The notes under the pieces are model-generated. The model was not told where the DNA came from. It searched no databases and was given only the letters and a program-made list of their open reading frames with translations. From positions 64,001 through 128,000 of IMG/VR virus record IMGVR_UViG_3300024999_000044: a stretch of 64,000 nt of DNA; one strand, given 5' to 3'. The position numbers were made by a program, and so were the translations under genes. This document shows, in pieces, positions 2,963 to 63,727 of this stretch; positions within the stretch are counted from its first letter, which is position 1; each line of letters starts with the position of its first letter. Source of the DNA: a virus.

Positions 2963-5305
2963 ATGGCTTTAGATAGAACAAGTACTCAGATGATAAAGTC
3001 CCCATTTCCTAATGGAGCAACTCTCAAGAAATCATTACTAGGAAGCAACAACCTTCAGTTAGCTGATTTTGGATATGATAGTAGTAATCCTGTAATGACA
3101 TATCTCTCTGCTGTTAATAATGCAACATCTTTTCTATCGGAGCGTGGTTATGGCACGCTGGAAATACCTGCAATAACAGGAGTGTCAGATTATATATCCT
3201 ATCTTGATGCTATCAAAGAAGACCTTAGTGTTAAACTCAGGTATCGTTATAGTTTCTATCGATTTCCCATTAATTCCGAATCTAGGGCTATAACTGGCTC
3301 CTTCCAGTTGGGTGACACTGTATATAACACGGATATTACTACCAACAAGGCCTTAGGATGGGTGTGTGTGGAAGCAGGCATACCTGGCAAATGGCAAGCT
3401 TTTGGTTTTATAAAGGATTGGTACACAGAGATAGAGAAGGTGACTGTATTACCGGAAGCTGGGCCTATGCAAGAGGGCAGGCAAGTATACGTAACTTCTG
3501 GAATACCAAGCATATATGTATGTAAAAAACTAAGTGATGGCAGCTACAAGTGGTTTTGGATGGATTACTCCTATGGCACTACGGTGCAGAGAGATGCTTC
3601 CGTTAAAACTATGGGTATGCCTTACTTTAACACCGATACTGGATACCCTGAATGGTGGAATGGGTTAGCTTGGGTAAAGATGATGGATCTGGTTGACGAA
3701 ATTATAAGTATAAATGAGGAGTTATCCCTTAAGACAAACGAAGAAGACTTTGTTGCGTATAAGGCAGATTACCCAACATTAACACAATTTCCTATAATTG
3801 TTCCAGAAACAGACGATACCGCCAGGATTAACAGAGGAATAACCAGTGTTTTTAATTCAGGTGGTGGTTTTTTACTTATACCAACAGGGGTATATAATAT
3901 CAACGCGCTCACCTCTGTAGTAATGAAGAATAATGTATCATTAATATTATCTCCCAATGCAATATTACAGGCAATAACCAATAGTCTAGATGCCTATGCG
4001 ATTGTGCTTTTTGATGGTGTGGATAATTGTAAATTGATAGGCGGAATTATAAAGGGCGATCGCACAACACATACCGGGATTACAGGTGAAAGCGGTATGG
4101 GGATATGGGTAAAAAACAGTACCAATATTGATATCATCGATGTGAGGGTAGATGATTGTTGGGGTGATGGTATTTATATTGGGGGCACTGGTACATTAGG
4201 AAAGAGTGTTCACGTAAATGTTATTATATGTAAAGGCAATAATAATCGCAGAAATGGTTTAACTATTGCGGCGGCTGATGAATGGTCGGTAGAGGATTCG
4301 GTATTTAAAAATTCTAATGGTATTGCCCCTGAAAGCGGTATTGATATTGAACCAAATCTAGATAAGCCAGGAGTCACTAATGGTAATGTTAGCAATACTC
4401 ATTGTTATGGTAACGCTGGACATGGTATTGCAATCTCACAACCTACCACTAGCTTTATTAATTTAGAAGGTAATTTCTGTTATCAAAATAGCTTATCCGG
4501 TATACAATCCGCTTATGTTGGAGAAGGAGTAGAATTAAAAAGTAATTCCTGCTATGAAAATACAATCCACGGGATAAGCCTTCTTGGAAATAATTCATAT
4601 TCTCCTAAACGATTAAATGTTTCGAATAATAAATGTTACCGAAACACAAAGTCTGGAATCTATGCCTACGAACGCATTAAGCTATCAACGATTAGTGATA
4701 ACCACTGTAAAGAGAATGGTGAGCATGGCATTTATGCAGACTTAACATTTGAGAGTAGTATAGTTTCCGATAATGTATGTGAAGCTAATGGCCAAGCTAT
4801 GCACAATACGTATGACAACATTCATATTGTGAACAGCAGTAACTATAATCTATTAAAAGGCAACAAATGCAGAAAGGGGGACCTGGCGAATAAACCTGCT
4901 TATGGAATTTATATGGGCAGTAATGATTTCAATGATTTAAAAGATAACGACGTAACATTAGGTGGAGAAACAGGAAATATATATTTACCTGCCACAAGCA
5001 CTAACATATCAGTTAAAGGGAATCGTGGGTATGTAACGGAAGCTAATATTTTATCTGGCACATTAGCTCTTGATTCTGGTGGATTTAAAGAATTAACAAT
5101 TGCTCATGGGTGTGGGTATACCCCCAGTTTAAAAGATTGTTCGGTAACTCTTGTGGAAAATACCGCCATATCAGATTACGAGATAAACCTTATAATTATT
5201 AGGAGCATAAATGCGACAAACGCAGTAGTAGGCGTATACATCAAAACCGCTTCTGCATTAGCTGGTTCAACGGCTAAACTAGCATTAAAAGTATCAAGAA
5301 ATTAG
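2963..5305 (+). CDS. tailspike/depolymerase-like protein with right-handed parallel beta-helix (pectin-lyase fold) repeats
   Basis: 780 aa; repeated N/G-rich coils (NNRRNGLTIAA, GIDIEPN, GHGIAIS, GIQSAYVG, GISLLGNN, GIYAYE, GIYADL) typical of PbH1 beta-helix. Confidence 0.55.
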   Translation: MALDRTSTQMIKSPFPNGATLKKSLLGSNNLQLADFGYDSSNPVMTYLSAVNNATSFLSERGYGTLEIPAITGVSDYISYLDAIKEDLSVKLRYRYSFYRFPINSESRAITGSFQLGDTVYNTDITTNKALGWVCVEAGIPGKWQAFGFIKDWYTEIEKVTVLPEAGPMQEGRQVYVTSGIPSIYVCKKLSDGSYKWFWMDYSYGTTVQRDASVKTMGMPYFNTDTGYPEWWNGLAWVKMMDLVDEIISINEELSLKTNEEDFVAYKADYPTLTQFPIIVPETDDTARINRGITSVFNSGGGFLLIPTGVYNINALTSVVMKNNVSLILSPNAILQAITNSLDAYAIVLFDGVDNCKLIGGIIKGDRTTHTGITGESGMGIWVKNSTNIDIIDVRVDDCWGDGIYIGGTGTLGKSVHVNVIICKGNNNRRNGLTIAAADEWSVEDSVFKNSNGIAPESGIDIEPNLDKPGVTNGNVSNTHCYGNAGHGIAISQPTTSFINLEGNFCYQNSLSGIQSAYVGEGVELKSNSCYENTIHGISLLGNNSYSPKRLNVSNNKCYRNTKSGIYAYERIKLSTISDNHCKENGEHGIYADLTFESSIVSDNVCEANGQAMHNTYDNIHIVNSSNYNLLKGNKCRKGDLANKPAYGIYMGSNDFNDLKDNDVTLGGETGNIYLPATSTNISVKGNRGYVTEANILSGTLALDSGGFKELTIAHGCGYTPSLKDCSVTLVENTAISDYEINLIIIRSINATNAVVGVYIKTASALAGSTAKLALKVSRN

Positions 5306-5485
5306 GGTTATCTGTAATCATTGATTTCGAGTATGATATCACTTAATTCATAGTGGATGGAAAAAGCAAACCAACCCCTCAAAATCGCTAGGGGAAAAAC
5401 TACAAGTCATTACTATTTACCCCCCATAATACTCATGAGACGATTTCAAGGTTTTGGATTCATTTAATTGAATGGAGATGAATAG

Positions 5486-5662
5486 ATGACTAAGTTATTG
5501 CTAAAAAACGGTTCTCACGCATACACCACACTCACTCCTGAAGAAGTAAGATCCTATCTACACGGTGGGATCAAAACCCAAGTCATCAATGGATTTGAAG
5601 ACCTACCAGGCACCATTCCAGTGTATATCTATGTCCATGCTATAATGCTTATCTACATTTAA
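5486..5662 (+). CDS. possible small protein (58 aa), not in the ORF track
   Basis: ATG at 5486 after ggaga RBS in a 400-bp otherwise unannotated gap; hydrophobic C-terminus. Confidence 0.25.
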   Translation: MTKLLLKNGSHAYTTLTPEEVRSYLHGGIKTQVINGFEDLPGTIPVYIYVHAIMLIYI

Positions 5663-5760
5663 TCCCATACAGAGAGATATAAACACACCCCTACTCTTGG
5701 ATTAGTGGGGGTATGTTTGTCTTCAAAGGTAAACCATCAAACATTGAGGAGAGTGGATTC

Positions 5761-8070
5761 ATGCCGTATTCCTTATCACCAGAATTTGTATCAAAATACA
5801 GAAATAAAATACCTGATTGGGGTATACTGGGTTGGGAAACCTACAAGAGAACGTACGCACGGTGGATTCAATCTGAACTTAGGTACGAAGAATGGTGGGA
5901 AACCTGTAAAAGAGTTATCGAAGGTAATTTTAATCTAGTGCCCAATGACCCAACATTCACTATGGAAGAGATGGAAACAGCCTATGATTTGATGTTCTAC
6001 TTAATATGGTTACCTCCTGGCAGAGGTTTGTGGGTATCCGGCACTGATTTTGCTAAGAAGCATGGGGATGCCCTAGTCAACTGCTGGTTTATAGCATGTA
6101 GACCGCAACCTTACCTAAAAGGAGAAGAAGCAAAAGTATCATTCCCTTTTGTGTTTATCTTTGACGTATCTATGAAAGGCGGAGGCTCTGGATTTACTGC
6201 TCGTAAGAAAGATGTTAGTTTGATACCAGTGGTGAGTAAAAAGATTAACCTCTTTATAAAGTGTGATGCAAATCACCCAGACTTTAGTATAGATGTCCCC
6301 ACAGCCAAATTGGATTATGGTGTTGTAGATAAAGTGATGCCAACTAAAGGCATATTAATTGGAAAAGTGAACGATTCAAGAGAAGGTTGGTGTGATGCTC
6401 TAAGTTGGGTAATTGATAGCCATTTTGCTGGGTTGTGGGAAGCCAATTTGGTTATTGATATCAGTGACGTACGGGGTTACGGTGAAGAGATAAAAGGATT
6501 CGGTGGGAAGTCTAGTGGCCCTAGATCACTTGTTGAACTTCTGTGTGGGGTAAATGACCTTCTCAATCTTAGGCATCAAGGTAACCTGTCTTCAGTAGAT
6601 GTAGTAGACATAATGAACATGATCGGAAGATGTGTTATTGCTGGTAATGTTCGTAGAACCGCACAACTATCTATTGGAAGTACCGATGACATTGGGTTTA
6701 TGCAAATGAAGGATTTTGGAGTAGTAGATGAAATTTGCCAAACAGACGTTTCAGGTAATTTCATCTGGGAAAATGGGAAACGAGTCTTAAAGCCTATGAA
6801 CATCCTACAGCATCTTTACGAAGAAAAAGAACTTCAGGGGTTAATTTACACCCATCATGCTCAAAGTAATCACAGGTGGTCCTCAAATAACTCATTAATG
6901 GTTACTCCTGAGTTTGATGATTGGAAATTCCTGTCAGATAAGCTAAAGATAAATGGAGAACCTGGGTACATTAATGAGTACCTCATCCAGAACTATGGGA
7001 GACTGATAGATGGGGTACAAGAAGGTATAGATGGGGAGGCTGAAGGATGCAATGCATGCGTTGAAATAACTCTTGCCAATGGTGAGCCTTGCAACCTGGT
7101 GGAGAATTTTCCCCTCAATATTAACAAAGCTAATAAAGACTACAAGAAGGTCTTAGATATCTCTGCCAGATACGCTTATAGGGTCACTCATTGCATTCAT
7201 GACTGGGAAGTTTCTAGGGATATTGTGTCTAAGAATAGAAGGATTGGTGCCTCCCTGTCGGGTATCCAGGATTGGGTACTTGAAGAATTTGGCGGTGAAG
7301 TATTTACTGGGTGGAAAACTACTAATGGTTTGACTCTACCTACTGGAGTAAATCCACTAGTAGTTAAGGCGTTGGATGACTATTACCATACAATTAAGGA
7401 ATCCGCCACCAAATACGCTAAAGCACTGGGCACTAACACCCCTATAAAATTTACAACAGTCAAACCATCTGGTACAATATCACTGCTAGTGGGTGCCTCA
7501 CCTGGTATGCACTGGCACTATTTTGGGTATGGGATACGTAGAATGCGATTCCAAATGGATGACATGTTACTTCCAATACTCAAACAAGCAGGTTATTACA
7601 TGGAACCCGATATAAAGGTGCCAAATACCATGGTTGTTGAGTTCCCTGTAAAAGCATGCACGGCGGACCATCCTAAATTTAGATCCGCCGGACAAGTACC
7701 AATCTATGAGCAATTTGCTTTCCAAGCTTTGTTATCTGAATACTGGGCAGACAACTCTGTCTCCTGCACCATAACTTTTCAGCCCGAAGAAGCAGATCAG
7801 TTAGAGGGACTATTAAGACATTATAGCACTAAGATTAAGGCCACCACATGCTTACCATATAAAAATCATGGGTATGCTCAGGCACCTTATGAACCTTATT
7901 CAGAGAAGGATGGGAAAAGTCCCAAACAGCAATACGAGGAAGCTCTATCCAAAATAACAGATAGGCCAGTGGATATTTATACTAGGCTTCACCTAAGTGA
8001 TAATGCTAAGGAAGAGCTGGAAGCAATATTAGGCTCTGACTGTACTACAGGGGCCTGCCCAATACGATAG
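5761..8070 (+). CDS. ribonucleotide reductase, class II (NrdJ)-like
   Basis: 'LVNCWFIA' (SCF-like), 'GGGSGFTARK' (GGGxG...R block), 'NACVEITL' (N-x-C-x-E active-site loop) followed by 'EPCNLVENFPLNI' (CNLGSINL-like), C-terminal Cys pair 'CTTGACP'; start moved to MPYSL after gaggag RBS (track start 5713). Confidence 0.6.
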   Translation: MPYSLSPEFVSKYRNKIPDWGILGWETYKRTYARWIQSELRYEEWWETCKRVIEGNFNLVPNDPTFTMEEMETAYDLMFYLIWLPPGRGLWVSGTDFAKKHGDALVNCWFIACRPQPYLKGEEAKVSFPFVFIFDVSMKGGGSGFTARKKDVSLIPVVSKKINLFIKCDANHPDFSIDVPTAKLDYGVVDKVMPTKGILIGKVNDSREGWCDALSWVIDSHFAGLWEANLVIDISDVRGYGEEIKGFGGKSSGPRSLVELLCGVNDLLNLRHQGNLSSVDVVDIMNMIGRCVIAGNVRRTAQLSIGSTDDIGFMQMKDFGVVDEICQTDVSGNFIWENGKRVLKPMNILQHLYEEKELQGLIYTHHAQSNHRWSSNNSLMVTPEFDDWKFLSDKLKINGEPGYINEYLIQNYGRLIDGVQEGIDGEAEGCNACVEITLANGEPCNLVENFPLNINKANKDYKKVLDISARYAYRVTHCIHDWEVSRDIVSKNRRIGASLSGIQDWVLEEFGGEVFTGWKTTNGLTLPTGVNPLVVKALDDYYHTIKESATKYAKALGTNTPIKFTTVKPSGTISLLVGASPGMHWHYFGYGIRRMRFQMDDMLLPILKQAGYYMEPDIKVPNTMVVEFPVKACTADHPKFRSAGQVPIYEQFAFQALLSEYWADNSVSCTITFQPEEADQLEGLLRHYSTKIKATTCLPYKNHGYAQAPYEPYSEKDGKSPKQQYEEALSKITDRPVDIYTRLHLSDNAKEELEAILGSDCTTGACPIR

Positions 8071-17461: not shown

Positions 17462-17800
17462 TTGTCTAAAGTACTAAACATTGGATTTGCTGGTAAAGAA
17501 GTAACATTTTCATGTGGATCAATAAGTTTTGATGAAAATGGCGTGGGTGAAATTACCGATGAAGAGATTTATAAGGGTGTTATTAAATTGCCTAACTTCA
17601 CACCTGTTGTAGAACCTGTTGTAGAACCTGTTGTAGAACCTGTTGTAGAACCTGTTGTAGAACCTGTTGTAGAACCTGTTGTAGAACCTGTTGTAGAACC
17701 TGTCACCCTCACTGCTACAGAACCTACAACAGCAAAACAAGTTACAGAGCAGGTAAAAGCGAAGCTTGTTGCCCACGCTTCCATCAAGACTAAAAGATAG
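17462..17800 (+). CDS. small protein with PVVE tandem repeats (possible head decoration/fibre protein)
   Basis: 112 aa; 8 perfect copies of PVVE encoded by a 12-bp DNA tandem repeat. Confidence 0.5.
   Translation: MSKVLNIGFAGKEVTFSCGSISFDENGVGEITDEEIYKGVIKLPNFTPVVEPVVEPVVEPVVEPVVEPVVEPVVEPVVEPVTLTATEPTTAKQVTEQVKAKLVAHASIKTKR
17603..17710 (+). repeat. 12-bp tandem repeat cctgttgtagaa x8 plus one degenerate unit, in-frame (PVVE)n
   Basis: read directly in sequence. Confidence 0.95.
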
Positions 17801-33431: not shown

Positions 33432-35066
33432 ATGGCAGACGGAAGAGATCTAATACAACTGAGGTATGGTTTAAAGGTTAATCTAGGCACTCCTGCTGAG
33501 AACGAGCCAGTTTACATCACAGATGAAGAGGAGTTATATATAGGTAAGGGGGTTGGGGTGGAACCCAGAAAAGCTACCCAGACTGTTAGGAATATGATTG
33601 AAAGTCTTTCCTCTGATACCGAGGAGGGATTATTACTAAAGGTTGATAAGGTAGAGGGTAAAGGACTATCTACTAATGATTATACCAGTGCAGAAAAGGC
33701 AGAAGTAGCAAAGGTAGTCCTTAAAACAAATCAGGAGGACTTTGCTTCGTTCAAGGCAGATAATGTGAAACATACTAAGTATATTTTCGGCAGGGAGTAC
33801 CTAGTTGCTTACCAAGAAAAGTTAAGGTTAAAACAAGCAGTTACACTATCATTTTCAGGCCCTAGCACTATTGAAGGGGATGCTATAACAGACCCAAAAT
33901 GGATACTGTCCACAGCATCTAGGGATATATTAACCCTTTATGGTGTTCACAATGCGACCTGCTTGAATAAAGGTCATAGTGGAATGTCTGTTCAAACATG
34001 GTTAGATTCTTATATTACTGAGGATATGGCCGAAAATCCAGATGCTTATTTTGTTCAATGGGGACCAAATGACTCAGGTGGTCTGCCATTTACACAAGCA
34101 AAAGTGGACGCGTTCGAAACAAAACTAAGAACTGGACTTGCCACTATACGGGCAAGTAAAACGGTTCAACAGATGAGTATTGTGTTAATGATGCCAAACT
34201 CAATGAATGATAGTCCTAATGGCAGGGACGCGACTTGGTTCGATGCAATTACCCCAGTGATAAAAAGGGCGTGTAGAGATTATTTTTGTTGTTTCGTGGA
34301 CACCTACAATTATTTATTAGATTCAACGAATGTAGTATGGCAAGATGATCCTTATGCAGACGGTCGGCATATTCATCCGTTAAATATTGGAAATGTCTGG
34401 ATAACATCATTGTTAACTCCAGTTATCATCCCAGAAGCGTTAAGATGGTATGGCTTTATTAATTATCCTGCTAGTACGGTCATACTGGATGGCACGGAAT
34501 TACCCTCGACTTTTAATAACGGAATTACGTTAAATAGGGCGCAAGGTTCAGTACCTTATGACGGTTTACTTAAAACAGTTAAGCAGGTTGACGGTGCAGC
34601 TTATCAGTTTAATACACCTTATAACGCAGGAAAATCTGAATTAGCTTTTAGAACATCCAATAATTTAACGGATAGCTGGAATGAATGGGAGGTCTTCCCC
34701 CAGATTTTTAACGTGCCTAATAGCGTGGAGCATAGAGAAATTACGGATAACTATAATAGATATCCTGCTGACGTATCTATGTATAGGGCAACGACAGGCT
34801 TTCTGATTGACGGTGCTGTGTTTACTTTTAAACAGGCTGACGGCGTTACCTTGGTATTGAATGTGGGGTATGGGGAGACTCCGGAGATAGCATTTAGGAC
34901 GTTTGACATAAGTGGCAACGCTTTTACGGCTTTTCACACACTTGCGAATGGGGTTACTGGTGCGGCAAACCCTAACACCAGTGGTGCAACATTGGGTGAA
35001 TTAGAAACGGAGGTAAATGAGTTAAAGGCTATACTACGGACGTTTAAGATTATAGCTAGTTCGTAG
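33432..35066 (+). CDS. tail fibre with SGNH/GDSL-type hydrolase (esterase/deacetylase-like) domain
   Basis: N-terminal anchor homologous to the 39824 ORF (DLIQ, EEELYIG, SFKAxN); SGNH blocks 'FVQWGPNDSGG' (GxND) and 'ADGRHIHP' (DxxH). Confidence 0.55.
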   Translation: MADGRDLIQLRYGLKVNLGTPAENEPVYITDEEELYIGKGVGVEPRKATQTVRNMIESLSSDTEEGLLLKVDKVEGKGLSTNDYTSAEKAEVAKVVLKTNQEDFASFKADNVKHTKYIFGREYLVAYQEKLRLKQAVTLSFSGPSTIEGDAITDPKWILSTASRDILTLYGVHNATCLNKGHSGMSVQTWLDSYITEDMAENPDAYFVQWGPNDSGGLPFTQAKVDAFETKLRTGLATIRASKTVQQMSIVLMMPNSMNDSPNGRDATWFDAITPVIKRACRDYFCCFVDTYNYLLDSTNVVWQDDPYADGRHIHPLNIGNVWITSLLTPVIIPEALRWYGFINYPASTVILDGTELPSTFNNGITLNRAQGSVPYDGLLKTVKQVDGAAYQFNTPYNAGKSELAFRTSNNLTDSWNEWEVFPQIFNVPNSVEHREITDNYNRYPADVSMYRATTGFLIDGAVFTFKQADGVTLVLNVGYGETPEIAFRTFDISGNAFTAFHTLANGVTGAANPNTSGATLGELETEVNELKAILRTFKIIASS

Positions 35067-35102
35067 TTGACAGAAAAAGCGAAACAACTCTCCAAAATCA
35101 TT
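35062..35102 (+). repeat. 41-bp element cgtagttgacagaaaaagcgaaacaactctc(c/t)(a/g)aaatcatt, copy 1, overlapping the stop codon of the fibre gene
   Basis: identical (2 mismatches) to 41991-42031 after the other fibre gene. Confidence 0.9.
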
Positions 35103-35149
35103 AGGGGAGAAAACTAGGAAACACCCCAATAAGAAGAGGAGGTAACAAT

Positions 35150-35698
35150 ATGTCAGTAACCCATCTAAAAGGCCACGTATCTAGGGCTATGGACTTTTAT
35201 AACAAACCTGATGTGTATTTTGGCATAGGTAAGCCTACTGCCTGGACGGAGGCAGATAGAACCACAGCCACCCCCACCACCACGGTTATAGGAGAATCCT
35301 ATCCACCCACCCCCACCAACACAGATGAGCTCATAGATCCCATAGCATACAAAAAGGTAGAATCCATATTTTTAGTAAGGCCTGACCCTTCTGGTGAGTT
35401 GACCTATCGTAATACTAAATGGAAGATAGTTTCCTATGCTGATGCACTTTCTCAAGGTGCTAGATGGGTGTACATTTCTACCTTTTTGTCCTATTCAGAA
35501 TTACCAACAGACATAGTTTATAGACAGATTGCTGCCTACACTAGGTTGGTTAAGCAAGTTAGTGTTCCGATAGGGCAATATGTCCTGTTACCTGGTGAGG
35601 TCACAGACCCTGGCATTATTGAAGTTATTGACAATAGAAAGCCAGTGTATAGGGATCCTGATCAGAGAGAACAATTAGTTTTAATCGTAGAATTCTAG
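35150..35698 (+). CDS. hypothetical protein
   Basis: 182-aa ORF with RBS ggagg. Confidence 0.5.
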   Translation: MSVTHLKGHVSRAMDFYNKPDVYFGIGKPTAWTEADRTTATPTTTVIGESYPPTPTNTDELIDPIAYKKVESIFLVRPDPSGELTYRNTKWKIVSYADALSQGARWVYISTFLSYSELPTDIVYRQIAAYTRLVKQVSVPIGQYVLLPGEVTDPGIIEVIDNRKPVYRDPDQREQLVLIVEF

Positions 35699-35727
35699 AC
35701 ACATTAAAATAAACGGAGGTGTACTGC

Positions 35728-38700
35728 ATGCCAAACCCCATCATAACTGCTCCTTACTATGATGATTATGACCCTTCTAAAGGGTATACCACTATATTGG
35801 CTGTACCAGGCTCAGCAGAGCAAGCCAGGGAATTTACACAAATCCAAACTACCCTATACGACCATATAGGTAGACTTGGCGACACTATACTGAAAAATGG
35901 GTCAGTAGTGGATGGGTGTGTTTTGACGGTTAGTGGTAATGACGCCGTCATCTCATCTGGCAGGATATACATGGATGGCTTAGTTAGATTGGTGGATGGT
36001 GTTACTCTTACTATCGACGGGGTGGGGTCAGAAGTCATTGGAGTTAAACTGATCACAACTATAGTAACGGAAATAGAAGACCCCACACTTAGAGATCCCG
36101 CCATGGGATACGAGAATTTTGGTCAAACTGGCGCACATCGGTCAAAGGAGATTGTCCAATTTGCTAGAAATAACCCTGAATTTACAACCATTTTTAGGTT
36201 GGAAGGTGGGGTTCTTTTAAAGTCAGATATATCACCAGAAATTGATGTTATTACTGATGTGCTGGCACGCAGGACTTATGATGAAAATGGTAACTACAAA
36301 ATAAATGGATTAGACCTAAGAGATAGAAACGAGGTTAGAGATGGCAAACTCCTCATATCTCTCACAGAGGGTAAGGCGTACATTCAGGGGTTTGAAATGA
36401 TAAAACCTGCTGCCTCCACAGTTTCTATAAACTATAGCCAAACTACCAGACAAGTTTTAAATGAGCCCAAAGGATATATCACAGGTATTGATAGATACCT
36501 ATTAAACAATCAGCCTGTTAAGGAGATCACTCAGGTAAAAGCAACTGTGCAAAAGGTAGACATCTTAACTAGGGGTAACGTGTCGGGTGGTATCGACTAC
36601 TTATCTAAAACTCCTGTAGTTAATATTGTTTCAGTCGTAGCTGGTGGAACCACATATGTTAATGGGGTTGACTATCAACTAACTAATGATGGGGTGGACT
36701 GGTCCCTCCCAGGCATAGATCCCAGTATCGGTACCACGTATACCGTAACTTATAAATATAACAAAATCATGGTTTTAGGAACAGATATAGAGTTAGAGCT
36801 GTTTGAATATAACCATTATCTCCATTTCCTCGACGGTGATCGTCCAGTAACCGGGACTACCGTTGACGCTAGTTATAACTTTTATCTGGCTAGGAAAGAC
36901 TTAGTGACCTTAGACAAGGACGGAGTTGCCAATGTCCTTGAGGGTAAACCAGAGATTGTCAGACTATCCGAAACCCCCCTAAATCAAGACACCACTAAAC
37001 TCATAATTGGTACGGTTCTAGTGTATCCAAATTCAGGAAAAATGGACATAAGTAACTTCAACACAGTGAGGCTATCCCAATCTGACCTGTTTAGACTGTC
37101 CAAAAGGGTTGATGACATAGAGTACAATCAAGCCATGACGGATTTAGACAAAGAGGCGGCAGATGGAGAGGCAGCTACTGATCTTAAGGGCATATTTACA
37201 GATGGGTTTATAGGTGTCACTAAATCTGATTTAACCCATCCAGAGTATGATGCAACTATAGACTTAGATAATGAAGAATTAACCCTTCCATTTACGATTG
37301 GCATAAGTGAAATGACACCCAATACTCAGACCTACGAAACCCAGGTTTCTTCAATAGGTAGAATTATGATGGCACCATTTACACACTTAAAGGCTTTGAG
37401 CCAAACTTTTTCTACAGAGAGCTTTTTAGTCAATCCTTATGCCGTGTACAATCCCATGAGCCTAATTTCAGTTATACCTGCCGTAGATAACTGGATAGAC
37501 TCCACCAAGATTCTTCTAAATAAAACCGAGACAAAAACAACCACACTTAGGAGATGGTGGTATCACAGAGGAGAAAGTTGGGCAGAAGAAGAGAGACTAA
37601 AATGGATAGCCCTTGGCCTAGTTGATGGGGGAGCATCCTTAGGGTGGGGGTCTTCTACTTCCGTTGTTAGTACCAGTTCATCCATTACTTTAGATGAAGC
37701 TATCATGTATATGAGACAAAAAGTCGTTAAAGTTACAGGGCAAAATTTTACCCCTTCGGTTGACAATATAGTGTGTCGTTTTAACGACACCGTGGTTCCA
37801 TTAACCCCATTAGCACCTACCGTTGCTGGTACTCAAGCAGGTACGGTAAGGGCCGGTACGCAAGGAACGTTCACTGCTCAATTTACAGTACCCGCCAATA
37901 CCCCCTGTGGTAGTGTTGAGGTTAAATTATCTTCAGCCACTGGACATGGAACCGCCATATACCGAGCACAGGGCAGGAAACAGATTATTACTAATACAGT
38001 TCTTACCACTACTATAGTTATGGTGCCCATAGACCCATTGGCTCAATCCTTTTCATTTGAGTCTGACACTATTATAACCAGGATTGGGTTGTATTTTGCG
38101 ACAAAAGATCCAAGTAAGGCCATAGTAGTGCAGATCAGAAATATGGTAAATGGTTATCCAGGTACCACTTGCTATGCTGAAACTACTGTGCCTTCTAGTG
38201 CCATTACTGTGTCTGATAAGGGTCAGACAGCCACACTGGTAGACCTGAATCAGCCAGTGTATTGCAGATCCAACGAACAATACTGTATATGTGTGCTATC
38301 AGATTCCAATGTTTATAGTGTATTCACCGCTACACTGGGGGCCAGAGATCTTATAACAAATAATTATGTCACTAGCCAACCTTATTCCACGGGAGTGTTA
38401 TTTAGCTCCTCTAATGCTCTCACTTGGACCGCACACCAGACCCAAGACTTAAAATTTGATGTGTATAAGGCTAATTTTACTAGTAATGGACAAGTTGTAT
38501 TTAATGATGTAACAGGGCTTGCCTTGAATAGGCTCTTACTTGCTGCTCAAGTTTTAGATTACAGAAATGCTGGCATAGAATGGTACTATAAGGTAAACTC
38601 CAGTTCATGGTTACCTATAGAAACATATGTAGATAGGGAATTATCCTCTATCGCCAACAGCATATCATTAAAAGCTGTTTTTAATGTAGCCGACTCAACT

Positions 38701-39060
38701 TCTCCTATGTTAGCAGTGGATGCAGTAAATGTGGTGGGGTTTACTGATAAAACCTCTTGCACGTATGTCTCAAAAAATATTGTTATGGATGAGTCATTCA
38801 CAAAAATAAAGGTGTTGCTGGATCTTACACTGCCCTCAGGTACTGCGTGCCATGTGTACTACATGAATACTGATGTATCTGAGGTGTGGAATGAGTTGCT
38901 AACGCCTTCCATAATACCTGTGGATGAGGAATTTTCCAGGTATGAGTGGAATAAAGTGGATATCAATGCCAAAGAATTCAGAGTGAAAATAGTTCTGACT
39001 ACCACAAATCCACTAGCTCGACCTAGAGCTAAGAAATTGATGAACATCTTGAAATACTAA
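35728..39060 (+). CDS. large tail/baseplate structural protein (1110 aa)
   Basis: very long beta-rich ORF in the tail-fibre region; start moved to ATG after aacggaggtg (track start 35719). Confidence 0.55.
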   Translation: MPNPIITAPYYDDYDPSKGYTTILAVPGSAEQAREFTQIQTTLYDHIGRLGDTILKNGSVVDGCVLTVSGNDAVISSGRIYMDGLVRLVDGVTLTIDGVGSEVIGVKLITTIVTEIEDPTLRDPAMGYENFGQTGAHRSKEIVQFARNNPEFTTIFRLEGGVLLKSDISPEIDVITDVLARRTYDENGNYKINGLDLRDRNEVRDGKLLISLTEGKAYIQGFEMIKPAASTVSINYSQTTRQVLNEPKGYITGIDRYLLNNQPVKEITQVKATVQKVDILTRGNVSGGIDYLSKTPVVNIVSVVAGGTTYVNGVDYQLTNDGVDWSLPGIDPSIGTTYTVTYKYNKIMVLGTDIELELFEYNHYLHFLDGDRPVTGTTVDASYNFYLARKDLVTLDKDGVANVLEGKPEIVRLSETPLNQDTTKLIIGTVLVYPNSGKMDISNFNTVRLSQSDLFRLSKRVDDIEYNQAMTDLDKEAADGEAATDLKGIFTDGFIGVTKSDLTHPEYDATIDLDNEELTLPFTIGISEMTPNTQTYETQVSSIGRIMMAPFTHLKALSQTFSTESFLVNPYAVYNPMSLISVIPAVDNWIDSTKILLNKTETKTTTLRRWWYHRGESWAEEERLKWIALGLVDGGASLGWGSSTSVVSTSSSITLDEAIMYMRQKVVKVTGQNFTPSVDNIVCRFNDTVVPLTPLAPTVAGTQAGTVRAGTQGTFTAQFTVPANTPCGSVEVKLSSATGHGTAIYRAQGRKQIITNTVLTTTIVMVPIDPLAQSFSFESDTIITRIGLYFATKDPSKAIVVQIRNMVNGYPGTTCYAETTVPSSAITVSDKGQTATLVDLNQPVYCRSNEQYCICVLSDSNVYSVFTATLGARDLITNNYVTSQPYSTGVLFSSSNALTWTAHQTQDLKFDVYKANFTSNGQVVFNDVTGLALNRLLLAAQVLDYRNAGIEWYYKVNSSSWLPIETYVDRELSSIANSISLKAVFNVADSTSPMLAVDAVNVVGFTDKTSCTYVSKNIVMDESFTKIKVLLDLTLPSGTACHVYYMNTDVSEVWNELLTPSIIPVDEEFSRYEWNKVDINAKEFRVKIVLTTTNPLARPRAKKLMNILKY

Positions 39061-39068
39061 GACACCTG

Positions 39069-39108
39069 CGGGGATAATTAATACTATGATTATCCCCGTA
39101 TTTTATTT
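39069..39108 (+). terminator. Rho-independent terminator
   Basis: cggggataat/attatccccg stem followed by tattttattt. Confidence 0.65.
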
Positions 39109-39142
39109 AATGACCTATTTTTATTTAAGGAGGTATACCTTT

Positions 39143-39343
39143 ATGCCTACTAAGGTAATAGATAAAGAGCACGGTGCTGTTATGTATAAAAGAACGGAAG
39201 CGGAAAAGGAGTTCAGGGAATTGAGGGAAAGTACAGAAGATTTGGTAGCTGGGTATGAGGAGCTTAAAGCTGTTAACACAGATCTACAGGCCAAATACTT
39301 ACTTCTTGAAGAAATGATTAACTCATTGATTAGTAATCAATAG
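39143..39343 (+). CDS. small coiled-coil protein
   Basis: start moved to ATG after taaggaggt (track start 39086 lies inside the terminator). Confidence 0.45.
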   Translation: MPTKVIDKEHGAVMYKRTEAEKEFRELRESTEDLVAGYEELKAVNTDLQAKYLLLEEMINSLISNQ

Positions 39344-39354
39344 GAGGTTTACCT

Positions 39355-39810
39355 ATGGTTGAATTAACACCATTAAATCTGAATTTAGATACTTTTGAGG
39401 TTATTTTTGACAAGTTGTCCTCAAATACTACCGCAGTCAATGAAGAACTACAAAAAGTGGGGGCAGTCATACATGAGGAAACTTTCATAGCTTCAGATGG
39501 TCAAACAGTGTTTAATCTAGAAAACGGAGAATACACCCCCCAAACCCACACTCTGGAGGTATCCATTGATAACGTCCCACAATACTTACATCAAGGATTT
39601 AACGAAACCTCAAGGACAAGTTTTAGTGTCACTGAGCCTTTGGAGTTAGGTCAGGTGGTTAGGGTTAGGTACTACTCAGTAAATACCAAAATGTCTGTGG
39701 TGTATGTGGAAGATAGCTATAGTCTAAATGGTGGGAGTTTTGATGATGTGTTCGACCCGTTAATAAGTAAATCTATTAACGGGGGAGATTTTGATGATAT
39801 AGTGGAATAG
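39355..39810 (+). CDS. hypothetical protein
   Basis: 151-aa ORF with RBS ggagg. Confidence 0.5.
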   Translation: MVELTPLNLNLDTFEVIFDKLSSNTTAVNEELQKVGAVIHEETFIASDGQTVFNLENGEYTPQTHTLEVSIDNVPQYLHQGFNETSRTSFSVTEPLELGQVVRVRYYSVNTKMSVVYVEDSYSLNGGSFDDVFDPLISKSINGGDFDDIVE

Positions 39811-39823
39811 AGGAGGAAATAAC

Positions 39824-41995
39824 ATGGCTAAAGATCTAATACAGATAACAAGTGGTTCAATAACCAGTGTTGATAAATTAAGATCCTATGAACCTGGTTA
39901 TGTGGTGGCTGAAGAGGAGCTATACATTGGTACCCCTGGTGGACCAAAGAAAATGACCTCTAAAAAAGAGGTTGGTAGTGTGGCAGAGCTAAATACAGTA
40001 GATAAGTCTAGCTTAGTTAAAGCGGTTAATGAAGTTAGGGGTGGTGTGTTAGATTTAGCCGGGATTGGTAGAACCACTGAGACCCTAAAGGGGGTTTCGG
40101 ATTCTCTTGTTTCGTTCAAGGCAGAGAATACGTTAGAGTTAACATTGAAAGCATCAACGGACTACGTTGACACCAAAATTGCTACGGTCGCAAGTGGATC
40201 TCCTAAAGGCGTATATGCAACATTAATTGATCTGGAAACTGCTTTACCGACTGGAGACACTGGCATCTACCTTGTTACAACAGATGGAGAGTGGTACTAC
40301 TGGAATAGTGCATCTTGGGTATCGGGAGGCATTTATCAGGGGTCAGGAATAGCAGACGGATCGGTCACTAGAATAAAGGCTGACTTTATGAAGGTTGGGG
40401 TAAACCTATTTAATGAAGATGATGTAACAGATAGTTTTTTCGCAAGGTCGGATACAGGAGTATTACAAGCGAGTGCAACTTATTCAGTTTCCGACTTTAT
40501 ACCTGTAACAGCCGAAACAGCTTATATTTTATCATCTATCGAACTTCTACCTTTCTATGATAGTAGTAAGGTATTTATTAGTGGCTTATCCCAAGCCACA
40601 TTAATTGCTGCTGATGGTAAATTTACCACTCCTGTGGGGGCAGCATATGTTAGGGTTAATACTTTAACCGCAAATTTAGCAATTCAGCAGTTAGAACTAG
40701 GCAGCATAAAGAGCTCATACGTATCCTATGATAAGTTTTTTATAGAACCAGATGTGATTAAAACATCTGATTTTGACGTTTTAGTCAATGCTACCACCTT
40801 ATCTGGTACCGTGGGTAAAGTGGTAAATATTTTGGATGATATTCACAATTTATTCAATAAAAGTACCGCAACATCTGGTAAATTTGCGAAATACACTGAT
40901 GGAACATTAGGGACAAACGCTTCATATACCGTTTCAGACTATATCCCAATAACGGCAGAAACGCCTTATACAATCAATTTTAATGAGCAAGTTGCGTTTT
41001 ATAATAGTAGTAAGGTATTCATTAGTGGGTTGTCTCAGGCTCAGTTGATTACGAGTAAGGGATTGCTTACGTCACCTGTTAGTGCCGTATTTATTAGGGT
41101 TAATACATTAACGGTCAATTTATCTGCTTTTGTTTTTATGCAAATAGATTATGTACCGCCAGTAGCAATACCTGACGGTTATTTGGTCAAAAAAGCTAAT
41201 ATCATTATCCCAAAGGGATTCATCGAGGTAGCAAAGCGTTGGGGGGATTTCAGTTCGATTGTTACTGCGATAGCCAACGCAAACGATTCAGTTAATAACC
41301 CTGTCACTATTAAGATTTATCCTGGAACGTACTATGAGAGAATCCTCGTCCCTGTTGGCAGGTATATCTCTTTGATAGGCGTAAATAAACTATCCTGCAT
41401 TATAAGGGACGATACTGCACAATATCCGATCTCTACCCTTGATTATAGAGGGATAGGTAGAATTGAAGGGTTATCTATTATTAACACTTATGACGATTTA
41501 GTAGACCCTGTTCTGCAAGACTTATACGCGTATGCTGTTCATTTAGATTATGAAGGAGCAGGAGATGTCGAACTCTTTAATTGTCTTATGAAATCTAATA
41601 CATCAGCAGCAGTTGGCATTGGTTTACATCAAGATCAATCCATAAAAATAGATAATTGCGAAATGTATGCCTATACGGATGTTGGTGTATCTCATACAAT
41701 TAATGGTGCATTACTTTGCCATTCTGGGGCTGGAGCCGATGTAACTGGTCAAAAATTTGAAGCTAGAAATTCTCTGTTCAGATCCGTAAATAATAAAGTT
41801 GTGAGTATTACGGATGATTTGAGTTCTGGTGACGTAGGAATGGATGTTACTTTTATAGGTAACACAGGGTATTGCGACCAGAATGGAATTACTAACGTAG
41901 TTAGTATAACAGCAAAAACGACAGGTAATTTGTCGGGCAAGATCAATTTAACTCCTTGGAGCCACGGTAACAATTTGGTTGAACTTAATGCGTAG
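39824..41995 (+). CDS. tail fibre/tailspike with internal duplicated domain and C-terminal pectin-lyase-like beta-helix
   Basis: N-terminal anchor homologous to the 33432 ORF; two approx. 70-aa repeats (ATYSVSDFIPVTAETAY...VRVNTLTANL / ASYTVSDYIPITAETPY...IRVNTLTVNL); C-terminal beta-helix-like region. Confidence 0.55.
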   Translation: MAKDLIQITSGSITSVDKLRSYEPGYVVAEEELYIGTPGGPKKMTSKKEVGSVAELNTVDKSSLVKAVNEVRGGVLDLAGIGRTTETLKGVSDSLVSFKAENTLELTLKASTDYVDTKIATVASGSPKGVYATLIDLETALPTGDTGIYLVTTDGEWYYWNSASWVSGGIYQGSGIADGSVTRIKADFMKVGVNLFNEDDVTDSFFARSDTGVLQASATYSVSDFIPVTAETAYILSSIELLPFYDSSKVFISGLSQATLIAADGKFTTPVGAAYVRVNTLTANLAIQQLELGSIKSSYVSYDKFFIEPDVIKTSDFDVLVNATTLSGTVGKVVNILDDIHNLFNKSTATSGKFAKYTDGTLGTNASYTVSDYIPITAETPYTINFNEQVAFYNSSKVFISGLSQAQLITSKGLLTSPVSAVFIRVNTLTVNLSAFVFMQIDYVPPVAIPDGYLVKKANIIIPKGFIEVAKRWGDFSSIVTAIANANDSVNNPVTIKIYPGTYYERILVPVGRYISLIGVNKLSCIIRDDTAQYPISTLDYRGIGRIEGLSIINTYDDLVDPVLQDLYAYAVHLDYEGAGDVELFNCLMKSNTSAAVGIGLHQDQSIKIDNCEMYAYTDVGVSHTINGALLCHSGAGADVTGQKFEARNSLFRSVNNKVVSITDDLSSGDVGMDVTFIGNTGYCDQNGITNVVSITAKTTGNLSGKINLTPWSHGNNLVELNA

Positions 41996-42031
41996 TTGAC
42001 AGAAAAAGCGAAACAACTCTCTGAAATCATT
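41991..42031 (+). repeat. 41-bp element, copy 2, overlapping the stop codon of the second fibre gene
   Basis: see 35062-35102. Confidence 0.9.
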
Positions 42032-42101
42032 GAACCCAGAGACTCTTTAGGTATAAGTTTCTTCTCGACGAGTATGCCCTAACTTTACGGGGGAACTCAG
42101 A

Positions 42102-42143
42102 AATATTCTGAACAACCCTTCTTTTCTATAAAAAAGAAGGGTT
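42102..42143. terminator. strong bidirectional Rho-independent terminator closing the structural module
   Basis: 14-bp perfect stem acaacccttctttt/aaaagaagggttgt, loop ctat, then gttttatt. Confidence 0.7.
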
Positions 42144-42594
42144 GTGTTTTATTATATGAAGAGAGTCAGCATAACATTCCTAAATGAAGAAATTCTACAT
42201 TCCATACAAGAATGCTACCCTAATATTGAAGTTAACACGCTGAGACCCTGATATCAGACATACTTACCAAGTACCACTCCAGTCCTGAGCACCAAAAATT
42301 TTCTACCCCTGACCTTAATAACGGAGCTCCCTTGTCTTATGCACAATCCCTTCTTGTACATTCAGATCCATTATCCACTCAAGTGTATGCAACGATAACA
42401 GATGAGAATAGGAAGAAATCATACAACAGATATCATTCCCAATAGCATAGATTTAGTATCAAGAACCTAAAATTAGTAACTGGGAGGGCAAATCTGATGG
42501 ACCTGTTTCACTTCCATACCTAAACGAGAATTTAAATAATAGACATGTTGTATTGTAGCATATAATAGGTAGCATATAAAGGGGGAGTGCACAT

Positions 42595-52066: not shown

Positions 52067-52525
52067 ATGCCTAGAAAGAAAAATTTAGAGTTTATAGAAG
52101 ATGAAAATGGTTGTTTTGTAGTAACCTCGCATGTACAAAAATGTGATGGGTACTCAGAAGTTGAGCGTAACTACAAGCGCATGAAATCACATAGACTAAT
52201 AGATGAACAGTGTTTTGGTCTTATACCTAGAGATAAGGTAGTCGGGCATAAATGTGACAATAAAATGTGCATAAACCCCGAACACCTAGAACTAGGAACA
52301 CCTGGGGAAAATTCTCAAGATATGGTTAAAAGAGGTAGATCTAAGAAAGGGGAAGAGCACCATTATAACACCAGGTTATCTTCTTCTGAAGTGAGGGAAA
52401 TTTTAAATGACAGGACTCTTTCACAGAAAGAGTTAGCAGTGAAATATGGGGTTACAGCTTCATTGATCAGCATGGTAAAGTTGAGAAAAAGATGGAAGCA
52501 TGTAAGGGTTGTTCCACATGAGTAA
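52067..52525 (+). mobile_element. free-standing HNH homing-endonuclease-like gene with C-terminal HTH
   Basis: 'GHKCDNKMCINPEHLELGTPGEN' HNH motif; inserted between the sbcC-like and primase genes; overlaps the primase start. Confidence 0.55.
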
Positions 52526-63631: not shown

Positions 63632-63727
63632 AAGGAGAGAACTTTTTAGTTCTCTCCTTTTTTATTATTGCTCACACTCCTTCTTCTTTATATTGGAGAG
63701 AACTTTTTAGTTCTCTCCTTTTTTATT
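63632..63727 (+). terminator. two tandem copies of the same terminator hairpin (33-bp direct repeat)
   Basis: ggagagaac-ttttta-gttctctcc followed by ttttttatt at 63632-63668 and 63695-63727. Confidence 0.65.

Follow-up and report, generated by a model that had tools for sequence, protein, structure and literature searches.

A short non-coding element behind the receptor-binding-type genes of an uncultured SPO1-like phage and its possible role as a border of exchangeable modules

Three genes for carbohydrate-active proteins of the receptor-binding protein (RBP) type are encoded in a 64,000-nucleotide stretch of viral DNA (IMG/VR virus record IMGVR_UViG_3300024999_000044, positions 64,001 to 128,000), and each of them is directly followed by a copy of the same short sequence, which we refer to as the element. 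The stretch, at its full length, is called the window below; it is part of a contig of roughly 141.7 kb from groundwater metagenomes, the SPO1-like phage genome being roughly 142 kb. A preliminary description of the window, made from the sequence alone, had reported two open reading frames (ORF1 and ORF2) with a common N-terminal anchor and with stop codons embedded in one 41-bp repeat, and had proposed a cassette system in which receptor-binding modules are exchanged at conserved boundaries on both sides. We followed up this proposal on about 82 kb of inspected DNA, consisting of the window with 10 kb to its left and 8 kb to its right, and the counts of element copies and RBP-type genes given here refer to this DNA.

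By its gene content the phage of the window is an SPO1-like (Herelleviridae-type) myophage: it has Baseplate_J, the BW3 tail-fibre-network component (PF25691), a DUF4815 tail protein, Phage_SPO1_gp51 domains and a phage sigma factor, and it is an uncultured representative of this type. The nearest isolated phages share just 41-47% protein identity with it (DUF4815 protein), a megablast search of the locus against 50,697 phage records gave no nucleotide match, and searches of IMG/VR for loci related to ORF1 or ORF2 returned no relatives. Contigs with 100% identity to the window were found in several independent assemblies (ENA ERZ27254726 k141_465162, ERZ909593, and ANAN16-1 scaffold_246), and fragments of the phage from Logan and JGI are also 100% identical to it.

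The element and the genes in front of it

The three genes and the three copies of the element, all on the plus strand, are as follows.

ORF1, 33432-35066, plus strand: 544 aa, in the baseplate/tail block, with its TAG stop within element copy 1
ORF1 layout: Mtd_N-like N-terminus, junction motif LKTNQEDFASFKADN, predicted SGNH esterase core (aa 117-340), further C-terminal part
ORF2, 39824-41995, plus strand: 723 aa, in the baseplate/tail block, with its TAG stop within element copy 2
ORF2 layout: N-terminus related to that of ORF1, junction SLVSFKAEN, small domain, predicted beta-sandwich repeats (aa 192-300 and 341-440), predicted beta-helix (aa 465-660)
ORF3, 2963-5305, plus strand: 780 aa, a beta-helix spike-type protein
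Element copy 1, 35057-35116, plus strand: the fullest copy, with stop codon, A-rich box GAAAAAGCGAAACAAC, hairpin and AAAACTA
Hairpin arms of copy 1, 35088-35093 and 35104-35109: the loop contains AAAATC
Element copy 2, 41986-42042, plus strand: 39/41 identical to copy 1 up to AAATCATT and diverged beyond
Hairpin arms of copy 2, 42018-42023 and 42037-42042: the 5' arm holds both substitutions that separate copy 2 from copy 1
Element copy 3, 5344-5402, plus strand: behind ORF3, 74% identical to copy 1 over 46 nt (5344-5389)
Hairpin arms of copy 3, 5375-5379 and 5390-5394

Between 35062-35102 and 41991-42031 only 2 of 41 positions differ and an exact 31-mer is common to both, which confirms the coordinates and the identity reported for the two stop codons; both TAG stops occupy positions 3-5 of the 41-nt sequence. 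A 41-nt match with up to three mismatches occurred in 0 of 100 shuffles of the window. Copy 3 begins 39 nt past the stop codon of ORF3, whereas copies 1 and 2 overlap theirs, and a 3' extension (AGGGGA..AAAACTA) is common to copies 1 and 3 and absent from copy 2. The invariant core of the three copies is GAAAAAGCRAAMCAAC followed by ..AAATC, and the element, probably a non-coding sequence of 45-60 nt, consists of the A-rich box GAAAAAGCRAAMCAAC and a small hairpin whose loop carries AAATC. In front of their stop codons the three genes show no significant similarity, save for a CTTAAT at copies 2 and 3: the TAG of copy 3 (5351-5353) is preceded by CTTAATTCA, which resembles the end of ORF2, CTTAATGCG, and CTTAATTCATAG before copy 3 stands in register with the ORF2 end CTTAATGCGTAG (CTTAAT-N3-TAG), though it is non-coding there. 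This in-register CTTAAT could be the scar of an earlier replacement.

No further copy was found besides these three, each of which lies directly behind an RBP-type gene; conversely, all three RBP-type genes found are tagged and no other gene is. The worry, raised at the outset, that the repeat might be a generic signal scattered over the genome is thereby answered for the about 82 kb. The copies are confirmed by the independent assemblies, which stem from several samples and are 100% identical through them. One Logan contig begins at 35063, in the 31-mer repeat, and ends at 40528, while ANAN16 scaffold_246 ends at 40553, at the start of an internal duplication of ORF2 and inside a region that the window has in common with another phage (L086, see below). 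Short-k assemblies thus break at 35063 and at 40528/40553, so the repeats are real enough to split de Bruijn graphs. A survey of 8-mers in the intergenic gaps brought up no additional common motif, and a candidate motif, CTGCTTAGATTTTTAA, was dropped as its frequency is no higher than chance.

The SGNH/GDSL-type hydrolase proposed for ORF1 has stood up well. The protein matches Pfam PF13472 with 36.5 bits, above the gathering threshold of 32.9; an alignment of 18 homologues shows no variation at Ser145, Asn213 and His315, the Gly of block II is present, and the predicted fold is recovered by Foldseek among Axe2, CEX and sialate esterases (E 5e-9 to 1e-6, acetyl-xylan esterases at E=5e-9). On profile score, catalytic residues and fold, ORF1 is thus predicted to carry an SGNH esterase core, and its C-terminal part is left without an assigned fold. 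Block I (33849-33866, residues 140-145) reads SGPSTI where homologues have SGDSTT, i.e., GPS for GDS, and the position of Asp144, nearly invariant in 17 homologues, is Pro in ORF1. Its best matches in isolated phages are the tail fibres or spikes of Vibrio and Pectobacterium phages. Baseplate wedge genes flank the gene on both sides, and the BW3TFN gene starts at 35150, downstream of ORF1 and element copy 1.

ORF2 has no Pfam match. The duplicated domain and pectin-lyase-like beta-helix that had been described for it are borne out by the internal duplication of 40553-40678 and 40997-41122 (71% nt identity), which is predicted to form two beta-sandwiches of about 100 residues each, and by a beta-helix model of residues 465-660 with pLDDT mostly 70-93. 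The ten top Foldseek matches of this model are all pectin methylesterases (E 3e-6 to 4e-5, probability 1.0), and sequence identity to enzymes of carbohydrate esterase family 8 (CE8) is 14-21%. No CE8 motifs (Gln/Asp/Asp/Arg; QDTL and DFIFG type) were visible in ORF2 on inspection by eye, and therefore only the beta-helix fold is established; the C-terminus is modelled as a right-handed parallel beta-helix that is CE8-like by fold. As a separate observation, beta-sandwich repeats of the ORF2 type are fused to SGNH esterase domains in other metagenomic proteins (P0149, P0152 and P0159), and P0149, with Mtd_N, three repeats and GDSL, combines the modules of ORF1 and ORF2 in one protein.

ORF3 contains a Pfam Beta_helix domain (E=8e-14), and its beta-helix module has a homologue among the tail-module proteins of Bacillus phage HSE3, a related phage. 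Its neighbours are a sigma-70-family protein (711-1943), PhoH (2037-2921), a 58-aa ORF (5486-5662) and a ribonucleotide reductase (5713-8070). A location among non-structural genes and outside the tail module is unusual for an RBP-type gene in an SPO1-like genome. With ORF3 included, Pfam and Foldseek together support the earlier count of at least three carbohydrate-active RBPs.

Junction motif and transfer of the ORF2 module

On the 5' side of the modules, three further features are needed.

5' junction repeat of ORF1, 33742-33764, plus strand: codons for ..ASFKADN, 21/23 nt identical to 40107-40129 with an exact 15-mer
5' junction repeat of ORF2, 40107-40129, plus strand: codons for ..VSFKAEN
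Exchangeable C-terminal module of ORF2 (putative), 40163-42000, plus strand: 80.3% nt identity over 1840 nt to L086 5700-7537

The N-termini of ORF1 and ORF2 are 29% identical over 109 aa (pairwise E=1e-6), the named motifs DLIQ, EEELYIG and SFKA(D/E)N included, so that their relatedness is confirmed; at the DNA level, identity is confined to short peaks at DLIQ, EEEL and, most of all, SFKA(D/E)N. Residues 8-40 of ORF1 match Mtd_N (PF18454) with 25.2 bits, below the cut-off of 26.3, and ORF2 gives no match to this family even at E<=10, being linked to it only via its similarity to ORF1. What had been described as a common N-terminal anchor is therefore retained as a related region and not as a near-identical adaptor: judged from these alignments, it would be a weakly conserved, widespread Mtd_N-type N-terminus. 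A diversity-generating retroelement target, to which the Mtd_N similarity pointed, was also considered and rejected, there being no RVT family among the Pfam-labelled genes of the about 82 kb and no repeat of at least 100 bp at the 3' ends of the RBP-type genes.

ORF3 shares the junction motif with ORF1: LKTNEEDFVAYKADY (aa 253-269, nt 3719-3769, right before the beta-helix) is identical to LKTNQEDFASFKADN at 10 of 17 residues (E=0.002). In all three RBP-type genes, foreign homology begins 5-13 residues past this motif. Homologues of ORF1 align from residue 116-120, with conserved columns from residue 120 (GREYL) and unrelated N-termini, and those of ORF3 align from residues 275-282, that is, 6-13 residues past the motif.

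The clearest case is ORF2. A contig from the same sample (L086; ENA ERZ27254726 k141_182774, 7,990 bp) belongs to a different, unrelated phage and carries a gene at 5478-7532 whose product (P0148, 684 aa) is 77% identical at the amino acid level to ORF2 from residue 114 to the end. The gene context differs, as the gene of L086 follows the lysis genes amidase and holin. Homology starts 34 nt past the junction motif and ends at ...GCGTAGT, 5 nt past the stop codon, which is the 5' edge of the element; upstream of the module P0148 and ORF2 have only a junction-type motif in common ((F/Y)KAE..EL.LKA), and behind its stop codon L086 has unrelated sequence and a canonical terminator, with no element. 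On this comparison, unrelated phages have exchanged the C-terminal module of ORF2, and its boundaries fall within 34 nt (5') and 5 nt (3') of two intragenomic repeats. As homology stops at the 5' edge of the element and L086 lacks the element, the latter is part of the recipient slot, as opposed to the cassette, and it has outlasted the replacement of its neighbouring module at least once. The common module also suggests that two phages of the aquifer community have the same host receptor.

What the element may do

The three genes can be read as slots with a common plan, in which a phage-specific N-terminal attachment part would be followed by the junction motif (..EDF-x-x-(F/Y)KA(D/E)..), a foreign module, the stop codon and the element, the foreign modules being an SGNH esterase, two beta-sandwiches with a CE8-like beta-helix, and a beta-helix. 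It may well be, though we hold this tentatively, that the element is a conserved border of such RBP slots, which is kept similar by copying and serves as a 3' homology arm for cassette exchange. Relaxed homologous recombination of phage recombinases on a few tens of bases is established. Under this reading the junction motif and the element would form the fixed edges of a slot and act as short homology arms, via which phage recombinases could replace C-terminal modules during co-infection, while copying or gene conversion would keep the element alike across slots. The A-box and hairpin may act in the transcript as well, as part of the 3' untranslated region (3' UTR); the retention of the border would then be explained.

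Two comparisons speak for copying. Copies 1 and 2 are 95% identical beside coding sequences that are 29% identical or unrelated, a pattern which argues that copying took place far later than the divergence of the genes. The similarity is also uneven (95% between copies 1 and 2, 74% for copy 3), and copying between slots therefore fits better than uniform selection. Of the cassette exchange proposed for both borders, the modular plan, the transfer of the ORF2 module and the position of the breakpoints are thus supported, whereas recombination at the element is inferred only.

Several points weigh against a border role. The sole demonstrated exchange partner, L086, is without the element and has just a 10-nt microhomology, CGTAGTNGAC, in common with the window; in that exchange, therefore, the element was not used by both partners, and no recombinant junctions were observed. 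With an exact 15-mer the 5' arm is short, and ORF3 has it at the protein level only. As all contigs of the phage are identical to the window, swapping has no support from population data. The inspected DNA falls short of the whole genome by about 60 kb.

The search for the element elsewhere was likewise unfavourable, as it was not found in IMG/VR, JGI metagenomes, GTDB genomes or more distant relatives. A search of IMG/VR with GAAAAAGCRAAMCAACYC gave 65 single matches, none of which resembles the flanks; in JGI metagenomes GAAAAAGCRAAMCAACNNNNNNAAATC gave 9 single matches with unrelated flanks, and in GTDB genomes 8 single matches in unrelated taxa, for which flanks were not compared. Distant relatives reached via the BW3TFN protein (L080-L085) contain no copy of at least 23/37, and their equivalent intergenic regions have no analogous structure. 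A closer relative is represented by a 1.2-kb contig (L102; BW3TFN 76% aa identity), in which the end of the upstream gene is unrelated to ORF1 and the syntenic intergenic region aligns with copy 1 via GCGACACAAC, AATCGAGGGGA and GAAAACT. In a global alignment 6 of 2000 shuffles scored as well, but this score owes part to the ribosome-binding site and start codon, and the free local alignment is not significant (269 of 2000 shuffles). The L102 flank is weakly similar, and no second genome was found with a clearly recognisable element beside a different module. In essence a single genome supplies the evidence, and the function of the element is unproven.

The strongest rival, which we consider unlikely and yet a serious contender, is that the element is an RBP-specific cis-regulatory signal of the transcript (a 3' UTR stabiliser, an RNase processing site or a site for a phage factor) that is kept by selection and would control how much of the three RBP-type proteins is made, or when. 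On the plus strand, the hairpin has a stem of 5-6 bp and a loop of 10-13 nt, and it lies at the same place in all three copies, the stems differing in sequence and AAATC being conserved in the loop. In copy 2 both substitutions fall in the 5' arm and the 3' arm, although unrelated in sequence, pairs with it (chance about 0.04). This retention of a hairpin with different stems is a suggestive structural hint, and the presence of the element behind an RBP-type gene even outside the tail module would fit a signal of this kind. Against it, the hairpins are weak (-6 to -7.5 kcal/mol), regional folding z-scores are unremarkable, and the L102 flank does not preserve the hairpin. Rfam gave nothing over the whole window at gathering thresholds, and permissive thresholds at the three sites yielded noise and terminator look-alikes only. 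Copy 3 stands 39 nt from its stop codon instead of overlapping it, and only three sequences are available, two of which are related by descent in both arms. A border role and a transcript role are not mutually exclusive.

Distinctly less probable is a passive relic, namely the functionless 3' untranslated end of an ancestral fibre gene that was duplicated, with a recent conversion between slots 1 and 2 by chance. The graded similarity of the copies (95% between copies 1 and 2, down to about 74% for copy 3), the truncation of copy 2 on its 3' side and the absence of the element from the other phages examined are in line with such a history. It accounts poorly for a 41-nt flank that keeps 39 identities while the coding parts of the paralogues are at 29% amino acid identity or show no similarity, and for survival through at least one replacement of an adjacent module; moreover, a recognisable version may persist in the L102 phage, whose neighbouring protein is only 76% identical. 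A long shot in the other direction is a dedicated address tag for host-recognition genes, with the A-box and hairpin bound by a phage-encoded recombinase, nuclease or RNA-binding regulator. If this were true, it would imply either active site-directed exchange of cassettes at RBP borders or co-ordinated expression of all RBPs genome-wide. Free-standing HNH_3 and NUMOD3 genes of the homing-endonuclease type are present in the genome (window 52067-52525; L088 2545-3417). Such genes are common in SPO1-like phages, and no link between them and the element was found.

The remaining roles concern transcription and translation signals. The following terminator closes the block of tail genes.

Intrinsic terminator, 42112-42145: bidirectional, 14-bp stem with T run, 80 nt after element copy 2

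The preliminary description had allowed for the element itself being a promoter or a terminator, and neither suggestion survives. As a plus-strand intrinsic terminator it was rejected on the basis of its weak stem, long loop and the lack of a U tract (the tail reads AAAACTA or CTCTTTA); the terminator scan called none, and the canonical terminator lies beyond copy 2. In a more distant relative (L103 153-343; ENA ERZ12298780 NODE_13688; BW3TFN 63% aa identity), a canonical plus-strand terminator, CCTCCCC-TATAACA-GGGGG-TTTTGTG, preceded by an A-rich stretch, occupies the position of copy 1. Elsewhere in the window, two exactly identical 33-nt terminator hairpins (GGAGAGAACTTTTTAGTTCTCTCCTTTTTTATT) form a tandem pair 61 nt apart (63634-63666 and 63695-63727).

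An intrinsic terminator on the minus strand, in which the hairpin is followed by T-rich TTGTTTCGCTTTTTC and would block antisense transcription into the RBP genes, is very unlikely. T is found at 5 of 8 bases past the stem in all three copies, but stems of 5-6 bp with loops of 10-13 nt compare badly with the 12-14 bp stems of the clear terminators of this genome, the terminator scan made no call, there are no minus-strand genes or promoters nearby, and the restriction to RBP genes would be left unexplained; such a role is weak at best.

A promoter for the gene downstream of each RBP gene, recognised by host sigma-A via TTGACA or by a phage sigma factor, is still more improbable. Copies 1 and 2 do contain a perfect TTGACA, and a sigma-70-family protein is encoded at 711-1943. 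The hexamer is replaced by GTGGAT in copy 3, no usable -10 box lies 16-18 nt downstream of TTGACA, and the promoter scan lists no -35/-10 pair, so that a sigma-70 promoter was rejected. Furthermore, copy 2 is followed only by a terminator, and the downstream genes have no common feature. Staphylococcal Herelleviridae have a late -10 motif (PMC10383478), which the element lacks and which is not enriched in the window.

Finally, a short peptide or read-through extension past the TAG (LTEKAKQLSKIIRGEN in copy 1, LTEKAKQLSEIIEPRD... in copy 2 and MEKANQPLKIARGK... in copy 3) is hardly credible: although the frame is open for 16, 28 and 35 codons with TTG or ATG directly after the TAG, a coding function was rejected on the substitution pattern (one synonymous and five non-synonymous changes and a frame-shifting indel between copies 1 and 3), a ribosome-binding site is lacking, the peptides diverge in length and sequence past the repeat, and the gene calls of the ENA assemblies place no gene there. 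Unrelated to the element, a 112-aa ORF in the head/tail block (17462-17800) contains a perfect 12-nt tandem repeat, ACCTGTTGTAGA, of about 8 exact units (17578-17733), which codes for (PVVE)8, a proline-rich spacer-like segment.

Significance and comparison with known systems

The host range of tailed phages is set by their RBP modules, and the natural swapping of these modules matters for evolution as well as for therapeutic phage engineering. If the border reading is true, an SPO1-like phage has natural plug-in slots, each delimited by the junction motif on one side and, on the other, by a non-coding border that the recipient genome keeps. A functional element could serve as a landmark, both to predict which RBP cassettes of metagenomic phages are exchangeable and to design swaps; were it only a relic, the locus would still be a clean case of module transfer between unrelated phages of one aquifer community.

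The closest concept for the repeat is the promoter-early stem-loop (PeSL) cassette of T4-type phages, in which repeated intergenic sequences serve as exchange points (Arbiol et al., 2010, PMC2839356; Comeau et al., 2014, PMC4122927). Each PeSL joins a strong sigma-70-like promoter to an effective terminator; many copies lie in hyperplastic regions of non-essential early genes, and their recombination products (mini-circles) have been shown physically (PMC2839356, PMC4122927). The element resembles them as a short repeated intergenic stem-loop sequence at gene borders and as a proposed exchange point between unrelated genes. It fails the defining features of a PeSL, as it has no promoter and no effective plus-strand terminator, and it is present in three copies, only behind RBP-type genes.

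Depolymerase spikes of Klebsiella phages have a conserved N-terminal anchor and an exchangeable enzymatic C-terminus. In T-even phages, motif-mediated swapping takes place in the genes of the distal tail fibre and the gp38 adhesin (PMC3157838). The phage of the window resembles these modular RBPs in its phage-specific N-terminus, horizontally exchanged C-terminus, short conserved exchange motifs and several RBPs per virion. Their recombination motifs, however, lie within the coding sequence, and the anchors of the window phage are only 29% identical. Exchange points of this coding kind, at conserved anchors and motifs, are well documented. To our knowledge, accounts of modular RBPs do not include a shared non-coding tag that begins at the stop codon of each RBP gene.

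As to the proteins, deacetylating tail fibres or spikes with SGNH domains are known from Pectobacterium phage Possum (PMC9569702), and SGNH domains have been described in Acinetobacter phage fibres (PMC11058221). ORF1 has the SGNH fold and the Ser/Gly/Asn/His blocks in common with them and differs in the GPS of block I and in the position of its gene among baseplate wedge genes of an SPO1-like myophage. The neck passage structure proteins of lactococcal 936-group phages are distantly homologous to the beta-sandwich/beta-helix part of ORF2 (~23-24% amino acid identity) and also to the SGNH core of ORF1; they differ by virion position and siphophage origin and have no common flanking element.

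Integron cassettes are alike in that an exchangeable coding unit has a short hairpin-forming repeat on its 3' side. The attC site of integrons is an imperfect palindrome of 57-141 bp with R''/R' core sites, recombined by the IntI integrase. The element was rejected as an attC site, since its stem is 5-6 bp, it has no RYYYAAC/GTTRRRY pair, and no integrase was found in the phage loci inspected; besides lacking a long imperfect palindrome, it stays with the slot, whereas attC travels with the cassette. An invertible segment of the shufflon type (Gin/Cin/Min), which has inverted crossover sites and a serine invertase, was rejected as well, because all three copies are direct and no recombinase gene is nearby. 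Recombination of copy 1 with copy 2 would delete the baseplate genes at 35150-39810 (BW3TFN and DUF4815), which are presumably essential. The modular plan of RBPs, SGNH deacetylase fibres and beta-helix spikes are well known, and it is the short, RBP-specific non-coding sequence, a candidate border, that would be new.

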